64,000 nt of DNA from an uncultured Planctomycetia bacterium (GTDB lineage Bacteria; Omnitrophota; Gorgyraeia; Duberdicusellales; Duberdicusellaceae), in the NCBI GenBank assembly GCA_964634935.1, contig CAZWJT010000008.1, forward strand, positions 26,063-90,062, read 5' to 3'. A program made the position numbers and the translations under genes. Below, piece after piece: positions 10,929 through 54,364 of this stretch. How positions within the stretch are numbered: position 1 is the stretch's first letter; every line of letters begins with the position of its first letter. The notes below the pieces were generated by a model, which was given only the letters and a program-made list of their open reading frames with translations, ran no database searches and was not told the origin of the DNA.

Positions 10929-13900
10929 TTATTCGGGAAGAGACCCGTCGTTTACTTTAATCACAAATCCATCGCTGTGAGCTGTCATCTCCGGAGCGTA
11001 CATAGACTGAAGCGTCGCAGCACCAACCCGATATACGCCGGCTTTTGTAGGCTTCAAGCGGTACCGAACAACATACTCGCCGTGAGGAATCCAGCTAATA
11101 AAAAAATTAGTTAAAGAATCCCTCGGCTCTTCATAGAAAGAAAGTGGATCATACTTCCAGCCGCTCAACAATGTCTCCGCCTCAAAACCGGCCGGCTTGG
11201 GATCTTTTAAGTGCATATATTCAAACTGGCTGCGGGTATTCAAAGTAAGTTCGACTTCAACCTGATCACCCACAGACACTTCCCCGCCGAAGGCAAGCGG
11301 CTTTAAATGGTACCCGTCTTCTTCCTTGACTCTCCGGTAAAACACGCGCTTGAGCGCAAGTAATCCCGGCATAGAGGCTTCGGGTACCTGGTCAGTTGAA
11401 TATACCCACGTAAGACTTGTGAAGGCAATTCCCGGTCCTTCTTTTTTAACGGTCACCGAGGTATCAACCCCGCGAATATCGGATCCATTCTTCTGCCAAC
11501 GAAGCGGTTTTTCCAGCCAATCATCAGCTTTTACCAGCAGTGAATCGCTCACCCCTCCCCATTGAACTAAAAACTTTTCGTCAGCGCCAAACGCCCCTTT
11601 GGCATTTAAAAAATCAAGGAGTGAATAGATTGCGGCGGCGGAAGCCTTGGTCGACTTCCATACCCCTGCTTTCCGGCTAAACAAAAGCCACTGAACCATA
11701 CCTGGAATCCGTTTATCCTCTGGCCTTAATTCCTGCAATGTCTTGAGCAAAAACGCGTGTTTTTCCACAGTATCTGAATACCAGACCCAGGAATATTTTT
11801 CTGGGGTCCAGTATACTCCGGCTATCGGGTCTTCCCGCGCTCCGTCTAAAGCCATATCCAAAATTTCTTCTGCCCGTTTTCTGTCGCCAAGCCGAAGATG
11901 AACATACGCAAGATACGCTTTTCCGAAAGGAGTCAGCGCAGCTGAATGCTTGTCCAAAAATACAACCCAGGAACGCGCCGCATCAAAACCAGCCTTGGCC
12001 TGAGGAAATTCCTGAACCGAGAAAGAAGTCACAACATACGCGGCATAGGCCACGAGCGCAAGATAAGAATCTTCCGCTTTTAGTTTCAGCGGTATCTCTT
12101 GATTCACGTAAGCAAGAGCTTTTGAAATAACCTGCCAAGGAACTTCCACCCCATACCTGCGGGCATGGGCAAAACCGTCAAGTACATAAAGGGTGATGTA
12201 TGGATCTGCGGCTCCTCCCGGCCACCAGGGAAAAGCCCCGTTGGGAAGCTGGGACATTGAAAGCCTCGCAAATACAGAATCTCTCTGCTCTTTTACTATT
12301 TCGGGATTCAAAAGATCTATAATCGGCCACGGAGTCGGCCGTCCTTTTGACTGCCACATCCAGGGAGTTTCTAAAAGCGTAATCAAACGGGTAGGGCTAT
12401 CCTTTTCCCAGGCTGGTGACGGAGTCATTCGCGTTGGAATTTTACTGACCGCTCTTTGCAGATCCGGATATTTCTTATAGACTTCATTCACGATGCTAAG
12501 CGGAACATACTTATTCAGCATCTGCTCAACACATTCATAAGGATATTCGATAAGGAACGGGATGCTGTTTAAAATACTCAAGATAAGCTGCGGTTCAATC
12601 TGTAAGACCATCGATTCATTCTGCCGGGTCGGATCAGCTTTCAGCTTTATCTCAATTTTTTTCTCTCCGGTTCCCGATAGCAACCCGAATGTCGATTCAA
12701 TCAGCCGCTCCCGAGAAGAAAGAATAGGAAGCATTCTCTCCTCCGCGTCAGAAAGCTTTCCGGAAATCGCCGCAACCCGTACTTTGTACGCAGAAACCCC
12801 TTCGGGTATCTCGACCGGAAACTGAAAATTCTGGAGGCTGTTTGGTTCTACAAAAAAACTTTTTTTCGCTCCGGAAATCTTTAATGCGTCGTTTATATTT
12901 TTCTCTCCGTCAAACACTTCAAGGGAAAGCTCTCCCCTGAGAGCTTTCCCTGATTCATTGTGCACAACCGCCGTAAGCGTTCCCTTGTCTTTTTCTCTGA
13001 AAAATCTGGGAATATCAGCCCGAACCATTAAGTCTTTTCTGGTCACAGCCTCTTCAGCTGCTGTTCCTTCTTTTGCATCCTTGGTAAAAGCAAAAATCTT
13101 CGCTCTCCAGCTCGTTAGCTGCTCGGGAGCAGTAAAAGAAAATAACGCTTTACCGTCTTTGCCGGTAATAATGCTCGGTTTAAAAAACGCGGTATCGGCA
13201 AATTCTTTCCTGGATTTTACTTGCCCGGAAGATTGTTGTTCGCGTAAGTTACTGCCTGCATAACCGCTCTTCCGATCTTTTTCCCCGTTGCTTACTTCGG
13301 CCATTTTAGAGACTGTACCCAAACACAGACTATCGGAATACCCCTCATCTTTACCGAGACCGCGCCGTAGGCCTAGCCAGCTCCTCCAAGACCGTAAAGA
13401 TGGAGGCTGAGGAACTCTATCTTTTTCCCGGAATGAACTAAGAATTTTTTCGAGCATTCCCTCTGTAATTGGCAATGAGCTAAAATAGGGAATAAAAGCT
13501 GAATGCTGCATTAATCCGTAATACGTGTCTAACGCATAGAGGGAATCAAGCCACGGATGTTGAGAAACCGCGTAGTATTCAAGCGAGCGGTCATACATCA
13601 ATGCGAGCGCCTCTGCTTGTTCGGGATTTCCACGATCGTCTTTTACTTCAATGCCCCACGCAGTTTCTTTCCCGGGAGCAAGTTCTTTGGTGAAAGGATT
13701 TATGATAACCTGCAATTTCTTTTCAGGCCATGGCACCGAGATTGTGACCGCTCCGGAATGCGTCTGCCCGTTTTTTACCCCAAACCAACGCAGAGAAAAA
13801 CCGCCCTTCATTTCTTCGGTTACCGGAACCTCGAGAACCTGGACAGGAAATTTTCCGGGTAATAGTTCATTACGCAAAAAATATCCGTTTGCCCATAGTT

Positions 13901-33113: not shown

Positions 33114-33607
33114 GTGAGTGTATCCATTTCTTGAATCAGTTTTTCAACGATTTTCCGGTCATCGTCGCCGCTCAGTTTCTTCTCGAGAACTTTTCCCGTC
33201 GTATCCACCACAAAATCGATTAACTGATCTTTCAATTCTGCTTGCGCTTGCGTGATTTCGTATTTGATATTTTGCCTGGTAATTTCAATAATTTTTTGGG
33301 ACTCCTGGTGCGCGGCACGGGTGATTTCTTCAGCAAGCTTCTGAGCCTCATAGGAAGCTTGCTGAATTTTTTCCCTGCAGGTTGCGTCGATAACTGCCAT
33401 TTTCCGCTCGTAATCTTGCTTAAGATTCTCAGTTTCTTTTTTTGCGTCGGCAATAGCCTGCATCTCTGATTTTATCCGCTCAGAACGGGCATCAAGAAGT
33501 TTAAGAAATTTGTTCCAGAAAAAAATCCTTAAGACAAACAACAGGATAAGAAACGAGATAATTTGCACAACGATCGTGCTGCTGTCCAGTAATTTAAGAA
33601 GTTCCAT
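33110..33607 (-). CDS. atpF: Fo ATP synthase subunit b
   Basis: N-terminal TM (IVVQIISFLILLFVLRIFFW), then a long charged coiled coil. Confidence 0.8.
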   Translation of the reverse strand: MELLKLLDSSTIVVQIISFLILLFVLRIFFWNKFLKLLDARSERIKSEMQAIADAKKETENLKQDYERKMAVIDATCREKIQQASYEAQKLAEEITRAAHQESQKIIEITRQNIKYEITQAQAELKDQLIDFVVDTTGKVLEKKLSGDDDRKIVEKLIQEMDTLT

Positions 33608-35104: not shown

Positions 35105-35250
35105 TGAGTGAAAAAAGGCAAATCTCGAGCAATCGAGAGACGCAAAGCGACAGTCCCGGTGTGGGCCTGGTAAGACAGGCCGACCTCCCGGGAGGCTGCG
35201 CTGCCACAGAGGAATAAACCCTAAAGCGTTGCCTTTAGGGTTTTTGCTTT
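35105..35250 (+). promoter_or_regulatory. Candidate c-di-GMP-I (GEMM) riboswitch with intrinsic-terminator expression platform
   Basis: AAAAAAGGCAAAUC, then a GNRA-capped hairpin UCUCGA-GCAA-UCGAGA, then GACGCAAAGC, then a CCCGG...CCGGG helix containing GGUAAG. This matches the GEMM-I core (A-rich run, GCAAAnC, P1b GNRA hairpin, GGACGCAAAGC, GC-rich P2). A terminator hairpin plus U-tract follows immediately before the RBS of the next gene. Confidence 0.5.
35216..35250 (+). terminator. Rho-independent terminator/attenuator hairpin in the 5' leader
   Basis: AAACCCTAAAG-cgttgc-CTTTAGGGTTT, followed by TTGCTTTT. An 11 bp stem with a T-run, about 30 nt upstream of the ATG at 35284. Confidence 0.6.
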
Positions 35251-35283: not shown

Positions 35284-35619
35284 ATGGAAGGAAAAACACA
35301 ACGAATTCTCCTGTTCTGGACACTGAGCGGAATTGGATTTCTTTTCTTTTTCGTTGTGTTTTTATCTTTTTCACCGACCGCATCAGCAGAAAATTCTACA
35401 ATTAGAATCGCCTGTATCATCCCTGAAATCCCAGGGAAAAATGTCGCAGTCATTGAAGAACATGCGACACTTCCTCTTCGACAAACAATTGACGAACAAA
35501 AAAAAGAAATAAGCCCAGAAAATAGTTATCCTCTGCTCTTCCAGAAAGAAACCAGAGAAAAAGTGGAAAGGGAAAATACAATCCTCTTGGTCACAACACA
35601 AACCGTCTACAGCCGCTAA
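35284..35619 (+). CDS. Small secreted/membrane-anchored hypothetical protein (111 aa)
   Basis: Strong RBS GAAGGAGGT 6 nt upstream of the ATG. N-terminal hydrophobic signal/anchor ILLFWTLSGIGFLFFFVVFLSFSPTASA, then a roughly 76 aa charged domain. No family recognised. Confidence 0.6.
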   Translation: MEGKTQRILLFWTLSGIGFLFFFVVFLSFSPTASAENSTIRIACIIPEIPGKNVAVIEEHATLPLRQTIDEQKKEISPENSYPLLFQKETREKVERENTILLVTTQTVYSR

Positions 35620-35680: not shown

Positions 35681-38600
35681 TTAGCGTTCTGTCTTCTTTA
35701 AAGGAATATTGTGGATGTAGCGGCTCCCTTCAAAAAGGGTGATTTTTTTAATCAGCGGAACCTTGGGAAGATAGTAAACGGGAATTGTGTTTAAATTCAA
35801 AGTGAGCGTATGCTCGCCGGGTTGAACGTTCATAAAAGCATAACTTCCGGAATCATCAGTTATGGATTTCTTGCCGTCTTCAAGGACGAGTACGACCCGG
35901 CGGACGCCCTTATCAACACGGCTATACAACCCATCGTTATCCTTGTCCTCAAAGACAAATCCGGATATTTCTGAACGGGCGGAGATGCCAAAATCAACCC
36001 GTATACACTCATTATGCACGATGGAGACCTTTTGTGTTTGCGGGGTCGTCAGAACAAATCCGTCAGGAATTGTTTTACTATCAAGAGCAACAAGTCCCTT
36101 GTGTTGAGGAACCCGCTCAAATCTATAAAAACCCAGGGAAGAACTCAGGAGCGGATTCTCATGGAACAGAATGATCTTGATTTTTTCTACTCCAGGCTCA
36201 TTGTCCTGGCGTATACCGTCAAAATTAATATCCTGAAATACGTAGCCTTCTATAGACCCGACTGGTTCCCAATGAATTCCCGTATCCCAGAGGGAACGCA
36301 TTCCAAGATTAAAACTCGTTTCGATTCTTTCTTCCACGGCGCGATTCTCAGCCCAGACATTGCGAATCCGCGCCGAACCGAACAATTCCGCGTCGTCATT
36401 CAATCTCCAGGTAAGTGATGAGTAACCTTCGATATAATCTTCTCCGGTAAGAAAACCAAGATTTGATTCGGTGTCTTCCTCATTGCGAAAGAGAAAACGC
36501 ACCGTACTCGAAAGCGGCGTATTCGGAAAAGATCCCGACCAATCAAGACCAGTCTCAAAGGCGGATGGCTTTGAACGTATTCCCGTAAAGCGTTCTTCGA
36601 GCCAGTTGAATTCCCGAGATAGATAGTAAAAAACATTCTTGCCGAGATTAATTCTGGCACTGGCTATGGCGCGTTCATTAAAATAATCGGAACCCGGGGA
36701 AGAGAAATTTTCATTCTCCTGATGGAAAAGATGCAATGAAACTTCCGCGTTATCCGGACGCAAAAGAGAAAATCTTTGTGATATCCCCGCATCAAAATTT
36801 TGATACCGGTATTGAGAAATACGACCAAGTTCATTACGCAGCGTGTAATGAGCCTGCAGAGAAGTATGAGGAGTAAGCCGGTAAAAAGCGCTTAAATCTA
36901 AATCTTGGTTCAGCCGGTGTTCGCTATCCCAAGCAGGATAGATTCTGTCTTGGAACAAATCAAAACTCCCCCGCAGCTCAAGATGCTCGATAGATTGGTT
37001 GTTAAAACTGAAAAGCATCCCAAGTTCTCCTTGGCGCGTAGCACTCCCGGTGCTGGTTGTGTAATCACGGTCGATATTCCTCAATTCAAAATCAAAGCTT
37101 CCCTGCGGTATCGCATGGCGCACCGTAAAAAGATGTGCCGGATCTTCTGGATCAGCCGCAAACTCGTATCCAATACTCCATTGATCAAGTTTCCAGATTC
37201 CACGTAAATCATACCCAACCGGGTTCAACTCAACCTCGCGATCTTTTCCAAAACCATGCACAACAGTCGCACTGTATTCCTGCGTAGCATCCGGAATATA
37301 CTGCACATGGAAACCGTCAATAAACGCGTCCCTCTCACTGGTGAGACTCGGAGAAATAAACCCATATCCTAACGTATGTTCTCTTCCGGCAAAAGCGGTG
37401 TAACGGATCTTTTTATTGAATGCTGCGGCCGAAAGCATACCCCCTCTTAGACTAATACCTGGAAATACCAAATTCGCAAAATCCGGAGGCCGCTCAAAAA
37501 AATCAAATGCGCGCAGACTAAACCCATCAAAGGTGCCGATATGCCCGTCAGTAATCCCCAGCGTAACCGTGTTGAGCTCGAGTTCCTTTTGGAAACGGCT
37601 CACCGAAAGAGAAGCATCTAAATTACCGTAAGGCGTCGGACCATAAAGCCCTATGGTATGGGTATAAAAATAATCCGTTCGGCCAAGATCGTCCAGGCTC
37701 GGCCCACGCTCATAGAGCGACCAATCAGTCGCCGAGCTTACTTTGAAATTATTTCTCCGCGAAAATTCATCAAGTGCCTTCTGTTGTAAATTTTCCCCTG
37801 CCGGCTTTTGCGGTATAGTTAAGAATTGAATTGTGGCTCTTCCCTGGTCGTTCCAGATATGCAAATAGGTATACCCGAGTTCTTTCCCGGTAACAAAAAT
37901 ACGGTCTGTGCCCGTACGCTCAGCGGTAATGATCCCCTCTTGGGTAACGAGAATTCTTCGAACGCCGGAGCTTACAATCAAAATACTTTTCTCCTGCTCT
38001 ATTTGAAATGCTTCGGCTTTTAAGTCGAGAAGCTTTTGAAGAGATATCTCAACCGGCGGCTGACTTTCCGTGGCCTTCGTTGCAACATGCTGCGCAATAC
38101 GTCTTTCTTCTTGCCGCTCTACTGGCACAGGCATTGGCGCCGTTGGCTCTGGTTGTGGCATGTACTTCGGGGCGCTCACCAATGCCCTGGTATCTTGAAG
38201 CACAATCGTTTTTTTTGCATCGGGTTTTCCCCCGACAACTGGCTGAACAGGAATTGATGTCACCGCTGGGCCGGGAAAATCTTCGTAAACAAAATCAACT
38301 TGTATATTACGCAGTTGTGCCGTGTTTTGCATCCCAAGCACAACCCTTGTTTTCTTAGGGTGATCTCGGCCTTGAGCAGAAACAGGAAAAACATCTTCTG
38401 TTTCAAAAATTAAATCTTCTCCAGCCCCATACGCAGTAGTCTGGTATTGATATGAAACCTTAGGTCTTGAGGTTATCTTCTTAGACCAAGTTTTTTCCTG
38501 GATGGGTATGGCACGCTTGAGTATTTCTATTTTCTCGATGTACCCAAGTACTTTTTGGTTCTCTGGATCTAAAACCAGCAATTTCTTAAACTCACTCAGC

Positions 38601-38905
38601 GCTTGATCATATCGTTTTTCTTGATAGAGTTGGGAGGCAGATTCAAAGAGAAAATCAAACGATAAAGGATAGTTTTCAGCGAGCGAAGAAAGGCTTAAAA
38701 GAAACAGAATCAAGAATAATTTTATCGAACGATAAAGCGATGAAGCTAAAAGGGCATTTTTTATCGCAGGAGTTGGAAACGAAAAATTACTGAATTGACC
38801 CAAGACGAAGAATCTCCCCTTGCGACCCAACCTCAACCTCCGCTTCTTTTGTAAGCACAAATTCGGAGCCGGCATTTTCTTCTTCGAGAGATCTTCCAAG
38901 ATCAA
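35681..38905 (-). CDS. Large outer-membrane protein: TPR + CpaC-N-like pilus-formation domain + beta-barrel-like region + C-terminal Cna-B/SdrD-B-like domains
   Basis: TPR-like segment SASQLYQEKRYDQALSEFKKLLVLDPENQKVLGYIEKI. Pilus-N-like segment ILIVSSGVRRILVTQEGIITAERTGTDRIFVTGKELGYTYLHIWNDQGRATIQF. A roughly 450 aa Tyr/Phe-rich amphipathic-strand region. C-terminal repeats VFQDINFDGIRQDNEPGVEKIKIILF and FVFEDKDNDGLYSRVDKGVRRVVLVLEDGKKSITDDSGSYAF. No secretin C-domain motif and no usher plug recognised. The true start is uncertain, probably ATG at 38875 (MPAPNL...), which overlaps the upstream gene. Confidence 0.7.
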   Translation of the reverse strand: MILEDLSKKKMPAPNLCLQKKRRLRLGRKGRFFVLGQFSNFSFPTPAIKNALLASSLYRSIKLFLILFLLSLSSLAENYPLSFDFLFESASQLYQEKRYDQALSEFKKLLVLDPENQKVLGYIEKIEILKRAIPIQEKTWSKKITSRPKVSYQYQTTAYGAGEDLIFETEDVFPVSAQGRDHPKKTRVVLGMQNTAQLRNIQVDFVYEDFPGPAVTSIPVQPVVGGKPDAKKTIVLQDTRALVSAPKYMPQPEPTAPMPVPVERQEERRIAQHVATKATESQPPVEISLQKLLDLKAEAFQIEQEKSILIVSSGVRRILVTQEGIITAERTGTDRIFVTGKELGYTYLHIWNDQGRATIQFLTIPQKPAGENLQQKALDEFSRRNNFKVSSATDWSLYERGPSLDDLGRTDYFYTHTIGLYGPTPYGNLDASLSVSRFQKELELNTVTLGITDGHIGTFDGFSLRAFDFFERPPDFANLVFPGISLRGGMLSAAAFNKKIRYTAFAGREHTLGYGFISPSLTSERDAFIDGFHVQYIPDATQEYSATVVHGFGKDREVELNPVGYDLRGIWKLDQWSIGYEFAADPEDPAHLFTVRHAIPQGSFDFELRNIDRDYTTSTGSATRQGELGMLFSFNNQSIEHLELRGSFDLFQDRIYPAWDSEHRLNQDLDLSAFYRLTPHTSLQAHYTLRNELGRISQYRYQNFDAGISQRFSLLRPDNAEVSLHLFHQENENFSSPGSDYFNERAIASARINLGKNVFYYLSREFNWLEERFTGIRSKPSAFETGLDWSGSFPNTPLSSTVRFLFRNEEDTESNLGFLTGEDYIEGYSSLTWRLNDDAELFGSARIRNVWAENRAVEERIETSFNLGMRSLWDTGIHWEPVGSIEGYVFQDINFDGIRQDNEPGVEKIKIILFHENPLLSSSLGFYRFERVPQHKGLVALDSKTIPDGFVLTTPQTQKVSIVHNECIRVDFGISARSEISGFVFEDKDNDGLYSRVDKGVRRVVLVLEDGKKSITDDSGSYAFMNVQPGEHTLTLNLNTIPVYYLPKVPLIKKITLFEGSRYIHNIPLKKTER

Positions 38906-39653
38906 TCGTCATCACGAGGCTATACGTGCCTGGAAGCACCATCCCCGGAGTAACCGCTTGCAAAGAAGCGCTCCCACCCGGAAACGTGTATACATCCTTA
39001 AATTCACCGCGCAGCTGCACGATACCATCCCGATCTATCAGATGAAAAGTCCCGCCCGCGGTAATATCGACATTCCCTGTATTTTTCAAATCACAGGAAA
39101 GTACGTATTCTTCCTTCACTCTATCGATCTTGAAATTCTCAAGCGCCGCTGTACGGATAATCGTGCTTTCTGGCTCTAGATAAAAGAGGGTCGCGATACG
39201 GATAGCAATATTCATCCCTGCACTTAAAGCTCCCCCGCGCTGCTCAATCTTGCCAAACATGCTCTCAAAAAACAAAGCAGCATAATGACCGCCTTTTGCG
39301 TCAGGCGGCACTTTTACAGAATAGCTGACTTTTTGTTTTGTAAAGGGTTTTAACACAAATTCAGCTGGGGAAAAGGTAATCCAAGAAGCGCATGAGAGCG
39401 GAGTTGTCCCAGCAGGAGAAAATTCCTTGGTGCCATCAGCAGCGGGGAGATACGTCCAATCCCCCAAATATACCCGCATTGCACGTTCTTCAGCGGTGGT
39501 ATTCTCAACCACTATATCTCCATAACCGCTTTGGCCGGGTATGATTGAAATCCGTATCTTAGTTTTATTGATTGAGGGAAGTTCTACGGCAAGACACAGA
39601 GAGGCAGATAGAAAGAAAAAAAGAAAGAAAGTTATGTTCTGAAAACGCTTCAT
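38787..39653 (-). CDS. Secreted two-domain SCPU/Csu-like beta-sandwich protein (fibre subunit or assembly factor)
   Basis: Signal peptide MKRFQNITFFLFFFLSASLCLA from ATG 39653. Two roughly 130-150 aa units, each ending in the G-x-Y-x-x-x-V/I-x-F/Y-x-L motif (GGHYAALFFESMF; GTYSLVMTIDL). The track ORF start at 39692 lies inside the palindrome. Confidence 0.6.
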   Translation of the reverse strand: MKRFQNITFFLFFFLSASLCLAVELPSINKTKIRISIIPGQSGYGDIVVENTTAEERAMRVYLGDWTYLPAADGTKEFSPAGTTPLSCASWITFSPAEFVLKPFTKQKVSYSVKVPPDAKGGHYAALFFESMFGKIEQRGGALSAGMNIAIRIATLFYLEPESTIIRTAALENFKIDRVKEEYVLSCDLKNTGNVDITAGGTFHLIDRDGIVQLRGEFKDVYTFPGGSASLQAVTPGMVLPGTYSLVMTIDLGRSLEEENAGSEFVLTKEAEVEVGSQGEILRLGSIQ

Positions 39654-39666
39654 TTCATTATAGAGT

Positions 39667-39697
39667 AGTGTGTGGTGCATTTGATGCACCACACACT
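39667..39697. repeat. Perfect 14 bp inverted repeat (AGTGTGTGGTGCAT-ttg-ATGCACCACACACT) flanked by 10 bp direct repeats TTTCATTATA
   Basis: Left arm 39667-39680, loop 39681-39683, right arm 39684-39697. Direct repeats TTTCATTATA at 39653-39662 and 39697-39706. Intergenic between the pilin-like gene stop (39712) and the next gene start (39653). Confidence 0.9.
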
Positions 39698-39711
39698 TTC
39701 ATTATACTCGC

Positions 39712-40287
39712 TCAAGGAGAAAGGGTCAATGTTACTGTTCCTGCATAAGAGCCTGTTGGCTTTGAAGTCGTGATAACCGAAACCCCGGTTGCGTCTCCGC
39801 TGCCACTTGCCAGAGCATAATAGATTCTAAGCCGCCCATTCGTCAAATCAGAGGCACTGTACACCTTGTTATTGCTGTTTTCATAGCTTACATAGCCTCC
39901 GGACAATACAGTCTCAGCGTTGTCAGCATTATTTACTTTCACGAATTTCACATTGGTGTGACCATTCAAGTTGTTTGTCGCGTCTTTCTGGAAATTGGTA
40001 CGGGTATGTGTCACAGTCCAGGTTGTCCGATTTGAAGTTACCGGAGCATCAACAACAAAGTATGAATTTGATCGGAACACGTTATCTGTACCCTGAGTAA
40101 GAGAAAGAAAATCCATACCGATTCCAAGCAAATCACTCACAGGGGTCCACGTCGTACCTGTTACCTTGTTCACTGCTACATTCATCTGGTGTGTTTCACC
40201 AATGTTCGCAGCGATACGAATTGTTGTCGCCGCAAAACAGAATGAAGCAATTCCCACGATAGCCACGAGAAAAAGAATCTTTCGCAT
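39712..40287 (-). CDS. Secreted SCPU/Csu-type fimbrial-like subunit (single domain, 191 aa)
   Basis: Signal peptide MRKILFLVAIVGIASFCFA, then ATTIRIAANIGETHQ... C-terminal motif PTGSYAGTVTLTLSP matches the SCPU C-terminal strand G-x-Y-x-D-T-V-T-V-T-V. AAGGAGG RBS upstream. Confidence 0.65.
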   Translation of the reverse strand: MRKILFLVAIVGIASFCFAATTIRIAANIGETHQMNVAVNKVTGTTWTPVSDLLGIGMDFLSLTQGTDNVFRSNSYFVVDAPVTSNRTTWTVTHTRTNFQKDATNNLNGHTNVKFVKVNNADNAETVLSGGYVSYENSNNKVYSASDLTNGRLRIYYALASGSGDATGVSVITTSKPTGSYAGTVTLTLSP

Positions 40288-40374: not shown

Positions 40375-41763
40375 TTACAATTCCAATAATGAATAGGTTA
40401 CATTCGCAGTATAATCTCCGGCTGAAACATGTTCGCCTGGAATCAGCTGGTAAATGATCTTGAATCGATCAGGGCTTCCCTCCAGATTTGAAACAAAAAC
40501 AGTTGAACTACCCTGAAGAACTTTCGTTTTACCCGGAAACTTAAGCATCCCTTTTGAGTCCAGGGATTCCATCTGGAACGTGAAATTTTCAGGGGGAATC
40601 GATTTTCCCTCTTTATTAACAAGCAAGGAAGAAACATCCTGTATCACCTGGTATCTGACTTTCCGGTTTGATTTTATTTCTAAAATCACTTCTCTGCGCT
40701 GAGGGGGATCATTCGGCTTTACATCTCGAAACTCCAAAGCGTTTTCTTTTGTTTTCAGTTGTACTTCCAAATCAAAAACCTGAGGTATTTCAATTTCAAT
40801 CTCCGCGTTCCCTATCTTCCGCTCAACGCCCCCTTGACTTAAAAAATACTCGATTGTCGAACGATACAATCCTGCCGGTAAAGAAGCTGTATCCTGCAAA
40901 GAATACCGAACTAAAAAGCTATCCCTATTCCGGGAAGGTGCACTTGTATAAAGAATTTGGGTTTGTGTCCGAAGCGGCGTTAAACCAAGAATGCTTTCTG
41001 ATTTTTCAATCCCCTGAACCATAAATTGCAATGCCCGTTCATCAAGCCTGCTCCCAGAATTTGATTCAAAAGGAACACGTAAGAATTGTTTTACAGAAAA
41101 TAACCCTTGAATGGGATTTATAATTTTGAAAAGGACGTCCGCCGTATTTTTCCCCTGCGTGGGATTGAAGCTAAGCCGCGAAGAAGCCGAGGGAAAACTG
41201 ATTTCCAGGGAATTCCCTTGCGTAGGAAGGTCGCGCGCAAGAACACGAACCTCAACGATCTTGGTTATCGGACTCTGGCCTCCCCCGAGAGGATAGAGGG
41301 TAAAGCTGATCCTTCCTGAATAATCCCCGGGAGAAATACGCAATAAATCTTTCAGCGCATAAACAAGCGTAAAGGTATCAGCATGCCCAACACTGTCTGA
41401 AACATACATAATTTCGTCACTGCGTACAACCGCTTCAGTTTCCGGCGCGCGTAAGTCTCCAAATCGATTCGTTCCGGAAACTCCCCGAAAAAGAAAATGA
41501 TCACTGAGATTAAGCTGCGGGTTGTTCCTCTCCTGAAGTGGGGCAATAATTCTCTGTACAACCTGGTACCGGGTGGAGATATCGGAGTCAATTCGCACAC
41601 GTATTCCCCGGGAAACAAGCGTAGGGGTAAAATCGAGCTGCGCACCACCTTCGGTAAGAGTATACGAGAGGTCAAAAACGGCAAGAGCGATATTAACCTG
41701 GAAAAAACAAATAAATAAAAACAGATATATTCTACCTAGACGAGTTTTGCTTGTCTTTTCCAT
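40375..41763 (-). CDS. Secreted protein with three tandem SCPU-like domains (tip/adhesin-like subunit candidate)
   Basis: Signal peptide MEKTSKTRLGRIYLFLFICFFQVNIALA. Three roughly 150 aa repeats ending GDYSGRISFTLYPL, AGLYRSTIEYFLSQ and GDYTANVTYSLLEL. The track start at 41772 is GTG. Confidence 0.65.
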   Translation of the reverse strand: MEKTSKTRLGRIYLFLFICFFQVNIALAVFDLSYTLTEGGAQLDFTPTLVSRGIRVRIDSDISTRYQVVQRIIAPLQERNNPQLNLSDHFLFRGVSGTNRFGDLRAPETEAVVRSDEIMYVSDSVGHADTFTLVYALKDLLRISPGDYSGRISFTLYPLGGGQSPITKIVEVRVLARDLPTQGNSLEISFPSASSRLSFNPTQGKNTADVLFKIINPIQGLFSVKQFLRVPFESNSGSRLDERALQFMVQGIEKSESILGLTPLRTQTQILYTSAPSRNRDSFLVRYSLQDTASLPAGLYRSTIEYFLSQGGVERKIGNAEIEIEIPQVFDLEVQLKTKENALEFRDVKPNDPPQRREVILEIKSNRKVRYQVIQDVSSLLVNKEGKSIPPENFTFQMESLDSKGMLKFPGKTKVLQGSSTVFVSNLEGSPDRFKIIYQLIPGEHVSAGDYTANVTYSLLEL

Positions 41764-41862
41764 GGCTTTCACTATCGTAGAGATAGTGCGTATTTTTCGA
41801 GTTTAATAAGACGTCCAGGAATGATACTTAGTACTTTTTAAACATATTAAATAAGTAAATTT

Positions 41863-51451: not shown

Positions 51452-51889
51452 ATGAAACATTTTTTATTCCGTGTGGCTTTCTCTGTTACGATTCTCTCGT
51501 GCTCTCTCGGAATCTTAACGTTCAGACCCGGCTTTTGCCAGGAAGACAAAAAACTGGCTCAAATCTATCAAGAATGCGTGCAGGCTATTCAAAAAGCAGA
51601 AAAGTTTTCGGACATTGAAATATACTACACGCAGGATGCGGTTGCCCAGTCGAAAGGAAACGAAGCAGCTGTCTTGATGATGCTCAAAGGCATGAATATT
51701 CGCGACATACAGCCCCTCGGAGAATCGATCCAAGGTGACACGGCTACATTGACGATGAAAGCCCAAACAAACATGGGACCAGCAGATGCCAGTATCTCAT
51801 TTAAAAAGGAAAACGACTCCTGGAAAATCTCCGAAGAAGACTGGAAATTTCAGTTTCAGGCAGGACAAAATCCTCCACCCGCTCAATAA
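51452..51889 (+). CDS. Secreted hypothetical protein
   Basis: Start MKHFLF with AAGGAGGTG RBS, signal peptide, about 120 aa mature protein. No family recognised. Confidence 0.5.
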   Translation: MKHFLFRVAFSVTILSCSLGILTFRPGFCQEDKKLAQIYQECVQAIQKAEKFSDIEIYYTQDAVAQSKGNEAAVLMMLKGMNIRDIQPLGESIQGDTATLTMKAQTNMGPADASISFKKENDSWKISEEDWKFQFQAGQNPPPAQ

Positions 51890-51953
51890 CAATCATAAAA
51901 ACATAAAAGCCATCTTGCTGTATAAACAAGATGGCTTTTATGTTTTCTCTCGT

Positions 51954-52772
51954 CTACGGTAAAGAGATGTCGACGAGATGAATAGGTACCGTTTTAATCG
52001 CCTTTTCGGTCTTCAACATAACCTCAACTGAAATATCTTGGGAAAAAGCACTGCCAAATGAAAAAGTCTTTAAGTCTCCGGAATACCCCCAGGAATCAGG
52101 GCGGATTTCCTCGCCAGAAGCGGCAAAAAACTTAAACCCAATTACCTTGGACTGAGGATCCTTAAATCGTATATACACGCTGTTCTCATCCGACCCAAGC
52201 ATTCCAGAAAACATCTGGTTCATCGATCGGTTTGGATTTACGGCTCCCCCCTTTTCTGAATCTTTGAGAAAATTTTCATAAGCTTCTTTGCTGTAAATAC
52301 TTAACTCTACTTGCGCTTCTTGCAAGACCTTTTCAGTCACTATTTTACCGCCGCCGATAAGCGCGCGCGAAATAGTAACCCGCGACAAAGGATCCTGCCG
52401 GGGACTGTAGAGTTCAATCTCGCCGCTGATTTCTCGTATGACCGAAGCGTTCCGGGCTGGATTCTCGAGTTTCAATTCAAACTGCGCCTGGCCGGTACCA
52501 TCGCCTCTAAAATCTTCAAAAGCTTTGTGATCGTAAAACTTTTCTTCTTTCAAAAGATTTCTCCCGGTATCGTCCATCGCTTTTGCAAGAATAAGGCGTA
52601 CTTTTTCAACATGTTCAAGTCCATCACCAGAGAGTTTCAGTTCCACACTTAATTCATTGAAAAACTTTCCGGTAGAACGAGAATCTTTCACGTCTCCAAC
52701 CTCAACCGTGATATCCGAGGAAAAGACAGATCCGGCAAAGAAAATCGACATAATCAATAGTGCGTATTTCAC
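51954..52772 (-). CDS. Secreted hypothetical protein (272 aa)
   Basis: Signal peptide MKYALLIMSIFFAGSVFSS; beta-rich. No family recognised. Confidence 0.5.
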   Translation of the reverse strand: MKYALLIMSIFFAGSVFSSDITVEVGDVKDSRSTGKFFNELSVELKLSGDGLEHVEKVRLILAKAMDDTGRNLLKEEKFYDHKAFEDFRGDGTGQAQFELKLENPARNASVIREISGEIELYSPRQDPLSRVTISRALIGGGKIVTEKVLQEAQVELSIYSKEAYENFLKDSEKGGAVNPNRSMNQMFSGMLGSDENSVYIRFKDPQSKVIGFKFFAASGEEIRPDSWGYSGDLKTFSFGSAFSQDISVEVMLKTEKAIKTVPIHLVDISLP

Positions 52773-53251: not shown

Positions 53252-54364
53252 TTATGCTCCTTGGAAAGAGATCAAATCTGTAAGAAATCTCGCTTTCAGC
53301 AACCCTTCATCCCATTCACCCTGGGGAGTTGAATCCCAAACAATCCCGCCTCCAATACCCAACTCGCCGCGTTCACCTTCGACTAAAAGAGTGCGTATCG
53401 GAATATTAAAAAACATATCTCGGTTGGGCGTGATATAGCCTATCGTCCCTGTATAGATATTACGCTCTTCTTTCTCAAGTTCGCGAATTATCTCCATAGC
53501 CCGTATCTTTGGAGCGCCCGTTACAGACCCCGAAGGAAACAAAGCCTGTAGCAGATCAAAAAATCTGATTTCCCTGTCAATCTCTGCTGTAACTGTTGAT
53601 GTCATTTGGCAGAGTGTCGCATACCGAGCAACCTCAAAAAGCCTGGGAACTTGTATATTCCGGCAGATTCTTCCAAGGTCGTTCCGGAGAAGATCAGCGA
53701 TCATCACGTTCTCAGCTCTGTTTTTTTGATCATGCTTCAGCCGATAGCCGGAAAAAACATCGTTAAAGAATTTTTTGCTCCGAGGCCAGGTCCCCTTCAT
53801 GGGTTTTGTCGAAATAAAAGTATCCTTTTTTTTAAGAAACATCTCCGGAGAAAGTGAGAGTAAATCGAATTGATCAGTGTGGATAAAAGCAGGATAAGGA
53901 ACCGGATGATCTCTTAATAATTTTCTGTACAATGAATACGTGCTTCCCTGAACTGAGAACAATAACTTCAAGCAATACGTAATCTGATATACATCACCTG
54001 CCGAGATAAAGGAACGAATTGATTCGATATTCGAATCGTATAATTCCTGAGAAATATTCGCTCGTAAACTGCCAAGGGAATACGCTTTTGCATCGCTTAA
54101 GTACCCCTGGATATTCAGGTAAGGCCTGCGGTAACAACCGAAATAAGCAAGGGGGAACCGGAAGGATTTTCCGATAAATAGTTTTTTCTCAAATGCATAT
54201 CCGGCTTCGTAAGAAAAAAAACCCGCCACAAAATATCCCTTATCGAGCGACTGCTCAATTTCTTCAAAACAGTATGGAAGTTCCTGGGGATGAAAACATG
54301 GAATAATCCGGTCAGGGTGTAGGAATAAAAGCGGTTGTTTTTCGAATTCGATTAATACATCCAT
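53252..54364 (-). CDS. Chorismate-binding enzyme, aminodeoxychorismate synthase component I-like (PabB/TrpE family, short form)
   Basis: GDVYQITYCLK...SPEMFLKKKDTFISTKPMKGT...LRNDLGRI...SGSVTGAPKIRAMEIIRELEKEERNIYTGTIGY... Confidence 0.8.
   Translation of the reverse strand: MDVLIEFEKQPLLFLHPDRIIPCFHPQELPYCFEEIEQSLDKGYFVAGFFSYEAGYAFEKKLFIGKSFRFPLAYFGCYRRPYLNIQGYLSDAKAYSLGSLRANISQELYDSNIESIRSFISAGDVYQITYCLKLLFSVQGSTYSLYRKLLRDHPVPYPAFIHTDQFDLLSLSPEMFLKKKDTFISTKPMKGTWPRSKKFFNDVFSGYRLKHDQKNRAENVMIADLLRNDLGRICRNIQVPRLFEVARYATLCQMTSTVTAEIDREIRFFDLLQALFPSGSVTGAPKIRAMEIIRELEKEERNIYTGTIGYITPNRDMFFNIPIRTLLVEGERGELGIGGGIVWDSTPQGEWDEGLLKARFLTDLISFQGA

Follow-up and report, generated by a model that had tools for sequence, protein, structure and literature searches.

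We report that a 59-nt spacer in a 64,000-nucleotide stretch of DNA (hereafter the window) from a Candidatus Omnitrophota metagenome-assembled genome is taken up by a perfect 14-bp palindrome and two copies of a 10-bp direct repeat, TATAATGAAA. The spacer separates a gene for a 191-aa pilin-like protein from a gene for a 288-aa chaperone-like protein in a conserved four-gene cluster. We suggest, as a reasonably likely explanation, that the palindrome acts as an intercistronic RNA stem-loop that uncouples the expression of the subunit from that of the assembly genes, and that a probable internal promoter overlaps it. An original prediction, made from the letters of the window alone, had offered an mRNA processing or stability hairpin as one of several readings of this element, and it is this one that is favored by the recurrence of unrelated hairpins at orthologous junctions and by some compensatory changes. 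We computed the structure of the element, how significant it is statistically and how unique, how often hairpins recur at the junction, and the match to a promoter.

The palindrome, its flanking repeats and the promoter-like site

All genes in this part of the window lie on the minus strand, and on this coding strand the spacer runs from the stop codon of the 191-aa gene (TGA, 39714-39712) to the start codon of the next gene (ATG, 39653-39651), reading TGA-gcgag-TATAATGAAA-gtgtgtggtgcat-CAA-atgcaccacacact-actc-TATAATGAA-ATG. A repeat finder confirmed the arrangement that had been described, a 14-bp palindrome flanked by 10-bp direct repeats between the pilin-like gene and its neighbor (Table 1). 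On the plus strand the repeat reads TTTCATTATA, with two exact 10-mers at 39653-39662 and 39697-39706, and T39697 is common to the palindrome and to the second of these copies, which is the upstream one on the coding strand. The downstream copy had been said to abut the ATG; it is indeed adjacent, but its final A is also the A of the start codon, so that the two overlap by one base. The hairpin ends 13 nt before the ATG. Its coding-strand tail, ACUCUAUAAU, has only 3 U in the first 8 nt and forms no U-tract, in line with the earlier statement that this is not a classical intrinsic terminator.

Neither the palindrome nor the repeats are likely to have arisen by chance. No perfect 14-bp stem arose in 30 block shuffles of the window (the largest had 12 bp), and none of 100 shuffles gave a match to the 31-mer. 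The window holds 10 distinct stems of at least 10 bp, compared with ~0.67 expected from block shuffles, and the palindrome is its second longest perfect stem. Moreover, the spacer holds the only two occurrences of the 10-mer in the window, against 0.38 expected per window, and the RNA fold of the region has a z score of -3.7. The spacer is identical in a separate Logan assembly of run SRR12133403.

The palindrome also bears on where the chaperone gene begins. In the public gene call this gene encodes 297 aa (MHHTLLYNE..., 38787-39680 on the minus strand), with a start ATG inside the 3' arm of the palindrome, 9 codons too long. In an alignment of 40 homologs, their N termini coincide with MKRF, and a normal signal peptide follows. 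Because the homologs align from there, the true start is the ATG at 39653, which corrects the database start, and both the MHH... and the MVHQMHH... starts read into the palindrome. The latter had already been recognized as a translation of the palindrome. A mini-open reading frame (ORF), MKVCGASNAPHTTL followed by a stop, begins in the upstream repeat, crosses the hairpin and ends 4 nt before the chaperone ATG. We rejected it as a translational-coupling relay and regard it as a chance occurrence, as an ATG-started ORF bridges the hairpin in only 4 of the 31 hairpin loci.

With up to 2-3 mismatches allowed, no second copy of the palindrome or of one of its arms was found in the window. A scan of a one-genome-per-species collection, which evidently does not include the source genome, returned no Omnitrophota match to the 20-base core with a loop of 2-6 nt; the scan gave 11 single matches in unrelated taxa (such as Proteobacteria, Lachnospiraceae and an archaeon). 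The palindrome was not found in viral contigs by a pattern scan, and the spacer element had no match at the gathering score in Rfam 15, where the sole match at E <=1 was a chance microRNA hairpin (E=0.99). Furthermore, BLAST found none of the hairpins of orthologous loci, described below, repeated elsewhere in 679 kb of ortholog-locus sequence. It had been asked whether additional copies resembling repetitive extragenic palindromic (REP) sequences or miniature inverted-repeat transposable elements (MITEs) exist. Since no dispersed copies appeared in the window, the representative genomes, the viral contigs or the ortholog DNA, membership in such a family was rejected.

The original prediction missed that the upstream repeat copy supplies a TATAAT with a near-consensus -35 hexamer at 17 nt. 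This TTGACC-17-TATAAT arrangement agrees with the sigma-70 consensus at 11 of 12 positions, and its -10 hexamer ends 47 nt upstream of the chaperone ATG. The window has seven matches of 11/12 or better where 1.0 would be expected, and five or more of them stand just upstream of a same-strand ORF start, one being ahead of the first gene of the cluster. In orthologous spacers the extended -10 sequence TGNTATAAT was found on the coding strand only, in 6 of 61 (0.42 expected). This suggests that internal promoters ahead of the chaperone gene are a recurring, not universal, feature. For the window spacer we call an internal sigma-70-type promoter probable and not proven, because its -35 hexamer lies in conserved Leu-Thr codons. 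A transcript from 39694 is predicted to open as a flush 11-bp 5'-terminal hairpin of -18.6 kcal/mol, leaving an AU-rich leader of 16 nt ahead of the AUG. The downstream TATAAT was considered as a leaderless promoter and rejected, as it lies 3 nt from the ATG and its -35 matches at only 3 of 6 positions. Elsewhere in the window, at 47606-47640 on the plus strand, a TTGACT-16-TATAAT sequence is separated by a 6-nt gap (47633 to 47640) from the ATG of a gene for a 313-aa ATP-binding cassette (ABC)-type ATPase, a spacing as would be expected for a leaderless mRNA.

Hairpins at the same junction in orthologous loci

We scanned metagenomes with a chaperone-like-protein profile and obtained 80 loci, to which three exact-protein look-ups added those with the closest pilin-like protein (71-74% identity; L093, L097 and L101). 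The gene order, 465-191-288-1074 by protein length, is conserved in about 80 Omnitrophota loci. After near-identical loci had been removed, a strong hairpin (-15 kcal/mol or stronger) was present in 26 of 58 pilin-to-chaperone spacers, as against 3 of 33 spacers that separate the cluster's first and second genes (Fisher p=4e-4), the latter count having been obtained under a more permissive hairpin measure. This is the comparison of orthologous loci that had been called for, and the hairpins that it revealed are unrelated in sequence.

The hairpin is present in the closest relatives (L002, L003, L004, L006, L007, L011, L093, L097 and L101), and its sequence differs in all of them; the only close relative lacking one is L009, whose start-codon assignment is doubtful. 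The stems are long, with 13 perfect pairs in L002, 18 in L007, 16 in L023 and 12 in L093, about 20 in L016 and about 25 in L027, and the junction of L097 forms a very large composite structure. Alignment detected no similarity between the window spacer and any orthologous spacer, and no covariance model could be built for the stem. In L003, L004 and L006, a 20-bp consensus stem is kept while four pairs are changed on both sides, that is, in a compensatory manner. L075 has additional subunit genes; there, two strong hairpins come after the first pilin-like gene rather than ahead of the chaperone gene, which lies 3 nt from its upstream neighbor. These comparisons argue for an RNA (or single-strand) hairpin under selection, with a structure conserved at a position and not in sequence. 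A conserved position with drifting sequence argues against both a sequence-specific operator and a dispersed repeat family.

The closest relatives have 1-19 nt between the end of the hairpin and the chaperone start, with no promoter-like site after the hairpin, so read-through must occur there. A true U-tract does follow the hairpin in some orthologs (L097, L028 and L017). The flanking direct repeats are another matter: none of the orthologous hairpins has one longer than 7 nt, and their matches of 3-7 nt are at chance level, which led us to reject flanking repeats as a general feature of the junction. Only this genome has the 10-bp direct repeat, which may have arisen as the target-site duplication of a single insertion or by local duplication.

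The hairpin-less spacers of L036, L048, L063, L068, L072 and L076 (~45-50 nt) share a motif of their own, TTGTAGTATAAT or a near variant, followed by AAGGGGG. By its sequence, TTGTAGTATAAT with this G-rich Shine-Dalgarno looks like a conserved short promoter-leader of that subclade.

Proposed function and competing explanations

We propose that, on a polycistronic transcript, the hairpin would mark the 3' end of the subunit cistron. It would likely block 3'-to-5' exonucleases after a cut in the AU-rich flank, and it may halt a fraction of polymerases despite having no U-tract, as a weak attenuator. The outcome would be a subunit mRNA that outlasts or outnumbers the mRNA for the assembly proteins. 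In this genome, the internal sigma-70-type promoter, with the upstream repeat copy as its -10 box, would probably also feed the downstream genes; transcription would begin within the 5' arm, with the 11-bp remainder of the hairpin at the very 5' end of the mRNA. A 5'-terminal hairpin is a known mRNA-stabilizing position and hinders 5'-end-dependent decay. That the element acts as RNA, in which direction and by how much it alters expression, and where transcription starts are what we infer here.

Several observations weigh against this proposal. About half of the orthologous clusters have no hairpin at the junction, and the compensatory evidence comes from three sequences only. The -35 hexamer, being placed in conserved Leu-Thr codons, could be a by-product of coding. 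The promoter-like -10 of relatives usually comes after the hairpin, whereas here it comes before, and for this reason we regard the 5'-hairpin part of the model as specific to this genome. Lastly, a stem-loop does not explain why exact 10-bp repeats stand on both flanks.

The proposed internal promoter might also be the whole of the matter. It would then drive the chaperone and usher-like genes, and the palindrome would be a 5'-leader hairpin that stabilizes the message or tunes its translation, not a 3' element of the pilin-like gene. This would agree with the 11/12 promoter with its optimal spacer, with the 7-fold enrichment of such matches in the window, with the flush 11-bp 5' hairpin that the predicted start would give, with a hairpin that ends 13 nt from an ATG without a Shine-Dalgarno, and with the recurrence of internal promoters in orthologous spacers. 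However, where orthologs have a clear extended -10 box, it is mostly downstream of the hairpin (L014, L016, L027, L046, L057 and L093), and the hairpin of L075 follows the pilin-like gene. Moreover, most hairpin-bearing relatives are without any promoter-like site, so that a 5'-leader function cannot be what is conserved about the hairpin. We consider this reading rather unlikely, if worth keeping in mind. It is quite unlikely, in our judgment, that the hairpin is instead a full intrinsic terminator that works without a U-tract and ends the pilin transcript, leaving the downstream genes to the internal promoter. The stem is strong, with 7 G-C pairs, and comes immediately after the subunit gene, and the true U-tracts of L097, L028 and L017 would suit such a role; but the coding-strand tail of the window hairpin is poor in U, a terminator scanner flagged only the non-coding plus strand, and the closest relatives, with a hairpin and no downstream promoter, need read-through. 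The clear terminators of this genome carry U-tracts, as at 35216-35243 and 51898-51946, and because such canonical terminators exist here the hairpin differs from them in kind. The palindrome at 51898-51946 is, as judged from its sequence, a textbook bidirectional terminator.

The direct repeats invite a different kind of explanation, in which the palindrome and one repeat copy together make a 44-bp unit, the trace of a small mobile palindrome whose insertion duplicated 10 bp of target, TATAATGAAA, and the hairpin has no selected function of its own. Exact 10-bp repeats bracket a perfect palindrome here and in none of the orthologs, all of whose flanking repeats are 7 nt or shorter; removing the unit leaves a tidy junction of stop, 14 nt and start, in which the 'empty' allele would read TGAGCGAGTATAATGAAATG; and hairpin sequences at the junction turn over fast between relatives. 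Such an insertion footprint with target-site duplication, which the original prediction had entertained, nevertheless found no support: the searches described above gave no further copy in the 64 kb, in Omnitrophota representative genomes (from the collection that lacks the source genome) or in viral contigs, no orthologous hairpin is repeated in the 679 kb, and no ortholog has a comparable flanking repeat. The 34-bp unit is also smaller than any described MITE, and a 14-nt empty-site ancestor is not parsimonious when all but one of the close relatives already have a hairpin. We hold it to be unlikely. A more speculative variant, to which we assign little probability, is that the junction hairpins are not drifting descendants of one stem but small palindromic cassettes that are repeatedly replaced, the window representing a fresh 44-bp gain that duplicated a 10-bp target with a -10 box and so gave the pilin message a decay barrier and, at the same stroke, supplied a new internal promoter whose leader is a hairpin. 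If this were true, the cassettes would form a new class of very small mobile regulatory palindromes that rewire the stoichiometry of operons.

It was also suggested that the palindrome is a protein operator. It would bind a dimeric regulator and overlap the start of the internal promoter, with the TATAATGAAA copies as auxiliary sites. The dyad is perfectly symmetrical and would cover roughly +1 to +28 of the promoter-like site, and the repeats are 44 bp apart, or about four helical turns. On the other hand, none of about 80 orthologous loci conserves its sequence, and stems that vary in length from 12 to 25 bp among orthologs (several reaching 20-25 bp), with variable loops, are a property of RNA or DNA hairpins rather than of operators. 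In addition, no regulator gene is evident in the cluster, and perfect arms of 14 bp exceed typical half-sites. An operator is thus highly improbable, and the intercistronic stem-loop remains the explanation that we prefer.

The gene cluster and its wider context

The sequences point to a pilus-type operon of four genes that resembles chaperone-usher systems and belongs to an uncultured Omnitrophota bacterium; operon context is indicated by the conserved gene order and by the overlap of the downstream genes (17 nt between the usher-like and chaperone genes). The model of the 288-aa protein (predicted local distance difference test, pLDDT, 90) has two beta-sandwich domains, and its top structural matches are FimC, CfaA, CsuC, Caf1M and PapD together with an enterococcal WxL-interacting protein (E 1e-10 to 1e-7). 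Going by this fold, the product is better described as a PapD-type chaperone than as the fiber protein for which it had been taken. The 191-aa model, also with a pLDDT of 90, gave weak top matches to class-5 fimbrial subunits (CfaE, CfaB and CS17; E about 3e-3), which make 'pilin-like gene' a reasonable label. Its gene has one of the four strongest Shine-Dalgarno sites (AAGGAGG) among 37 window genes checked, ~38% of which have a Shine-Dalgarno-like motif, and the chaperone gene has none. The other three strong sites belong to a giant ORF, an aldolase gene and the gene at 53252-54364.

Searches of the four proteins against Pfam, NCBIfam and PDB sequences returned only the TPR, pilus-N and SdrD_B domains, all in the large protein. 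The 465-, 191- and 288-aa proteins had no Pfam or NCBIfam match, the cluster matches no Pfam chaperone, usher or fimbrial family, and the large protein is not a PF00577 usher. Among the papers searched, none linked Omnitrophica with chaperone-usher systems, and the cluster may be an undescribed fiber-assembly system.

Table 1. Features of the spacer, the gene cluster and their surroundings (positions in the window)
Feature	Position	Strand	Remarks
Perfect 14-bp inverted repeat, 3-nt loop	39667-39680 / 39684-39697	-	100% complementary; repeat finder
Predicted intercistronic RNA stem-loop, AGUGUGUGGUGCAU-CAA-AUGCACCACACACU	39667..39697	-	~-23 kcal/mol, 7 G-C pairs
Upstream copy of direct repeat TATAATGAAA (coding strand)	39697..39706	-	contains TATAAT 39706-39701
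Downstream copy of TATAATGAAA	39653..39662	-	AU-rich, unpaired
-35-like hexamer TTGACC	39724..39729	-	17 nt upstream of -10, in the last codons (Leu-Thr) of the 191-aa gene
Predicted transcription start G39694	39694	-	from the promoter match; 7th base after -10, inside 5' arm
Sigma-70-like TTGACA-16-TATACT	41863..41890	-	upstream of cluster; probable operon promoter
465-aa first cluster gene, no known family	40375..41772	-	conserved upstream of pilin-like gene
191-aa secreted single-domain beta-sandwich protein, taken as pilin-like major subunit	39712..40287	-	fold model; Shine-Dalgarno AAGGAGG
288-aa protein with signal peptide and two Ig-like domains, PapD/FimC/CfaA-like chaperone fold	38787..39653	-	true start ATG 39653
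Large outer-membrane-type protein, 1040 aa as called, in usher position	35681..38803	-	TPR, T2SS-T3SS_pil_N and SdrD_B domains
Canonical terminator with T-run	35216-35243, then TTTTTGCTTTT	+	after c-di-GMP riboswitch
Perfect 20-bp palindrome with A/T-rich ends, putative bidirectional terminator	51898-51946		between convergent 51422-51889 (+) and 51954-52772 (-); longest perfect stem in window

Two further sets of structures were seen in the window. A cyclic di-GMP (c-di-GMP)-I riboswitch (58 bits, 35107-35208, plus strand) is followed by the U-tract terminator, a strong Shine-Dalgarno and an ORF (35284-35619, plus strand) that is convergent with the usher-like gene and whose 111-aa product belongs to no known family. 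In 9 of 15 orthologous loci scanned, a riboswitch likewise lies immediately beyond the large gene on the other strand, and in L093, L097 and L101, loci with gene calls, a convergent ORF of roughly 100 aa occupies the position of the riboswitch gene. This small convergent gene looks like a c-di-GMP-controlled companion of the cluster. Two perfect 13-bp stems also occur inside coding regions, one at 12922-12951 in the giant ORF (2002 aa) and one at 33329-33366 in the gene for the ATP synthase b subunit, which lies downstream of that for the c subunit; by analogy with structures described in PMC5927463, they may have an internal protective role.

The proposed arrangement has counterparts in well-studied bacteria. 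A 5'-terminal stabilizing stem-loop is exemplified by the ompA leader. Among fimbrial operons, pap (papBA) and CFA/I are listed as cases in which RNA is selectively processed and stabilized (PMC4423207). The REP hairpins between malE and malF are described as a 3' protective structure and papBA-like structures as 5' protective ones (PMC5927463), and the general scheme of an intercistronic stem-loop that protects the upstream cistron or attenuates is set out in both (PMC4423207, PMC5927463). As in pap and CFA/I, a stable hairpin without conserved sequence lies just 3' of a subunit gene whose product is presumably needed in abundance, and ahead of the assembly genes, and the expected effect is likewise more subunit mRNA than chaperone or usher mRNA. 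Unlike E. coli pap and CFA/I, the Omnitrophota order is large protein, subunit, chaperone and usher-like protein, with no Pfam chaperone, usher or fimbrial match; a promoter-like site also overlaps the hairpin. The element shares with malEF an intercistronic palindrome that has no U-tract and would shield the upstream cistron from 3' exonucleases; however, REP sequences are a dispersed multi-copy family, whereas the window palindrome is single-copy in all data searched. The flush 11-bp 5' hairpin, if transcription starts at ~39694, would resemble the ompA leader and the papBA-like 5' structures, from which it differs in that the start comes only from a consensus match and that the box of relatives mostly follows the hairpin. 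With intrinsic (Rho-independent) terminators it has in common a fairly G+C-rich stem-loop directly after a gene, but it has no coding-strand U-tract, and further genes of the pathway begin 13 nt beyond it.

A hairpin after a major pilus subunit gene is a well-known device, and here we add an example from an unstudied phylum that, to our knowledge, has never been cultured. The recurring hairpin junction, together with the strong ribosome-binding site of the 191-aa gene and the PapD-fold neighbor, suggests a real, tuned surface-fiber operon. More unusual than the hairpin itself is an unannotated pilus-type cluster that is widespread in Omnitrophota. The spacer offers a compact test piece for how hairpins without U-tracts and overlapping promoters might set gene ratios outside model bacteria.

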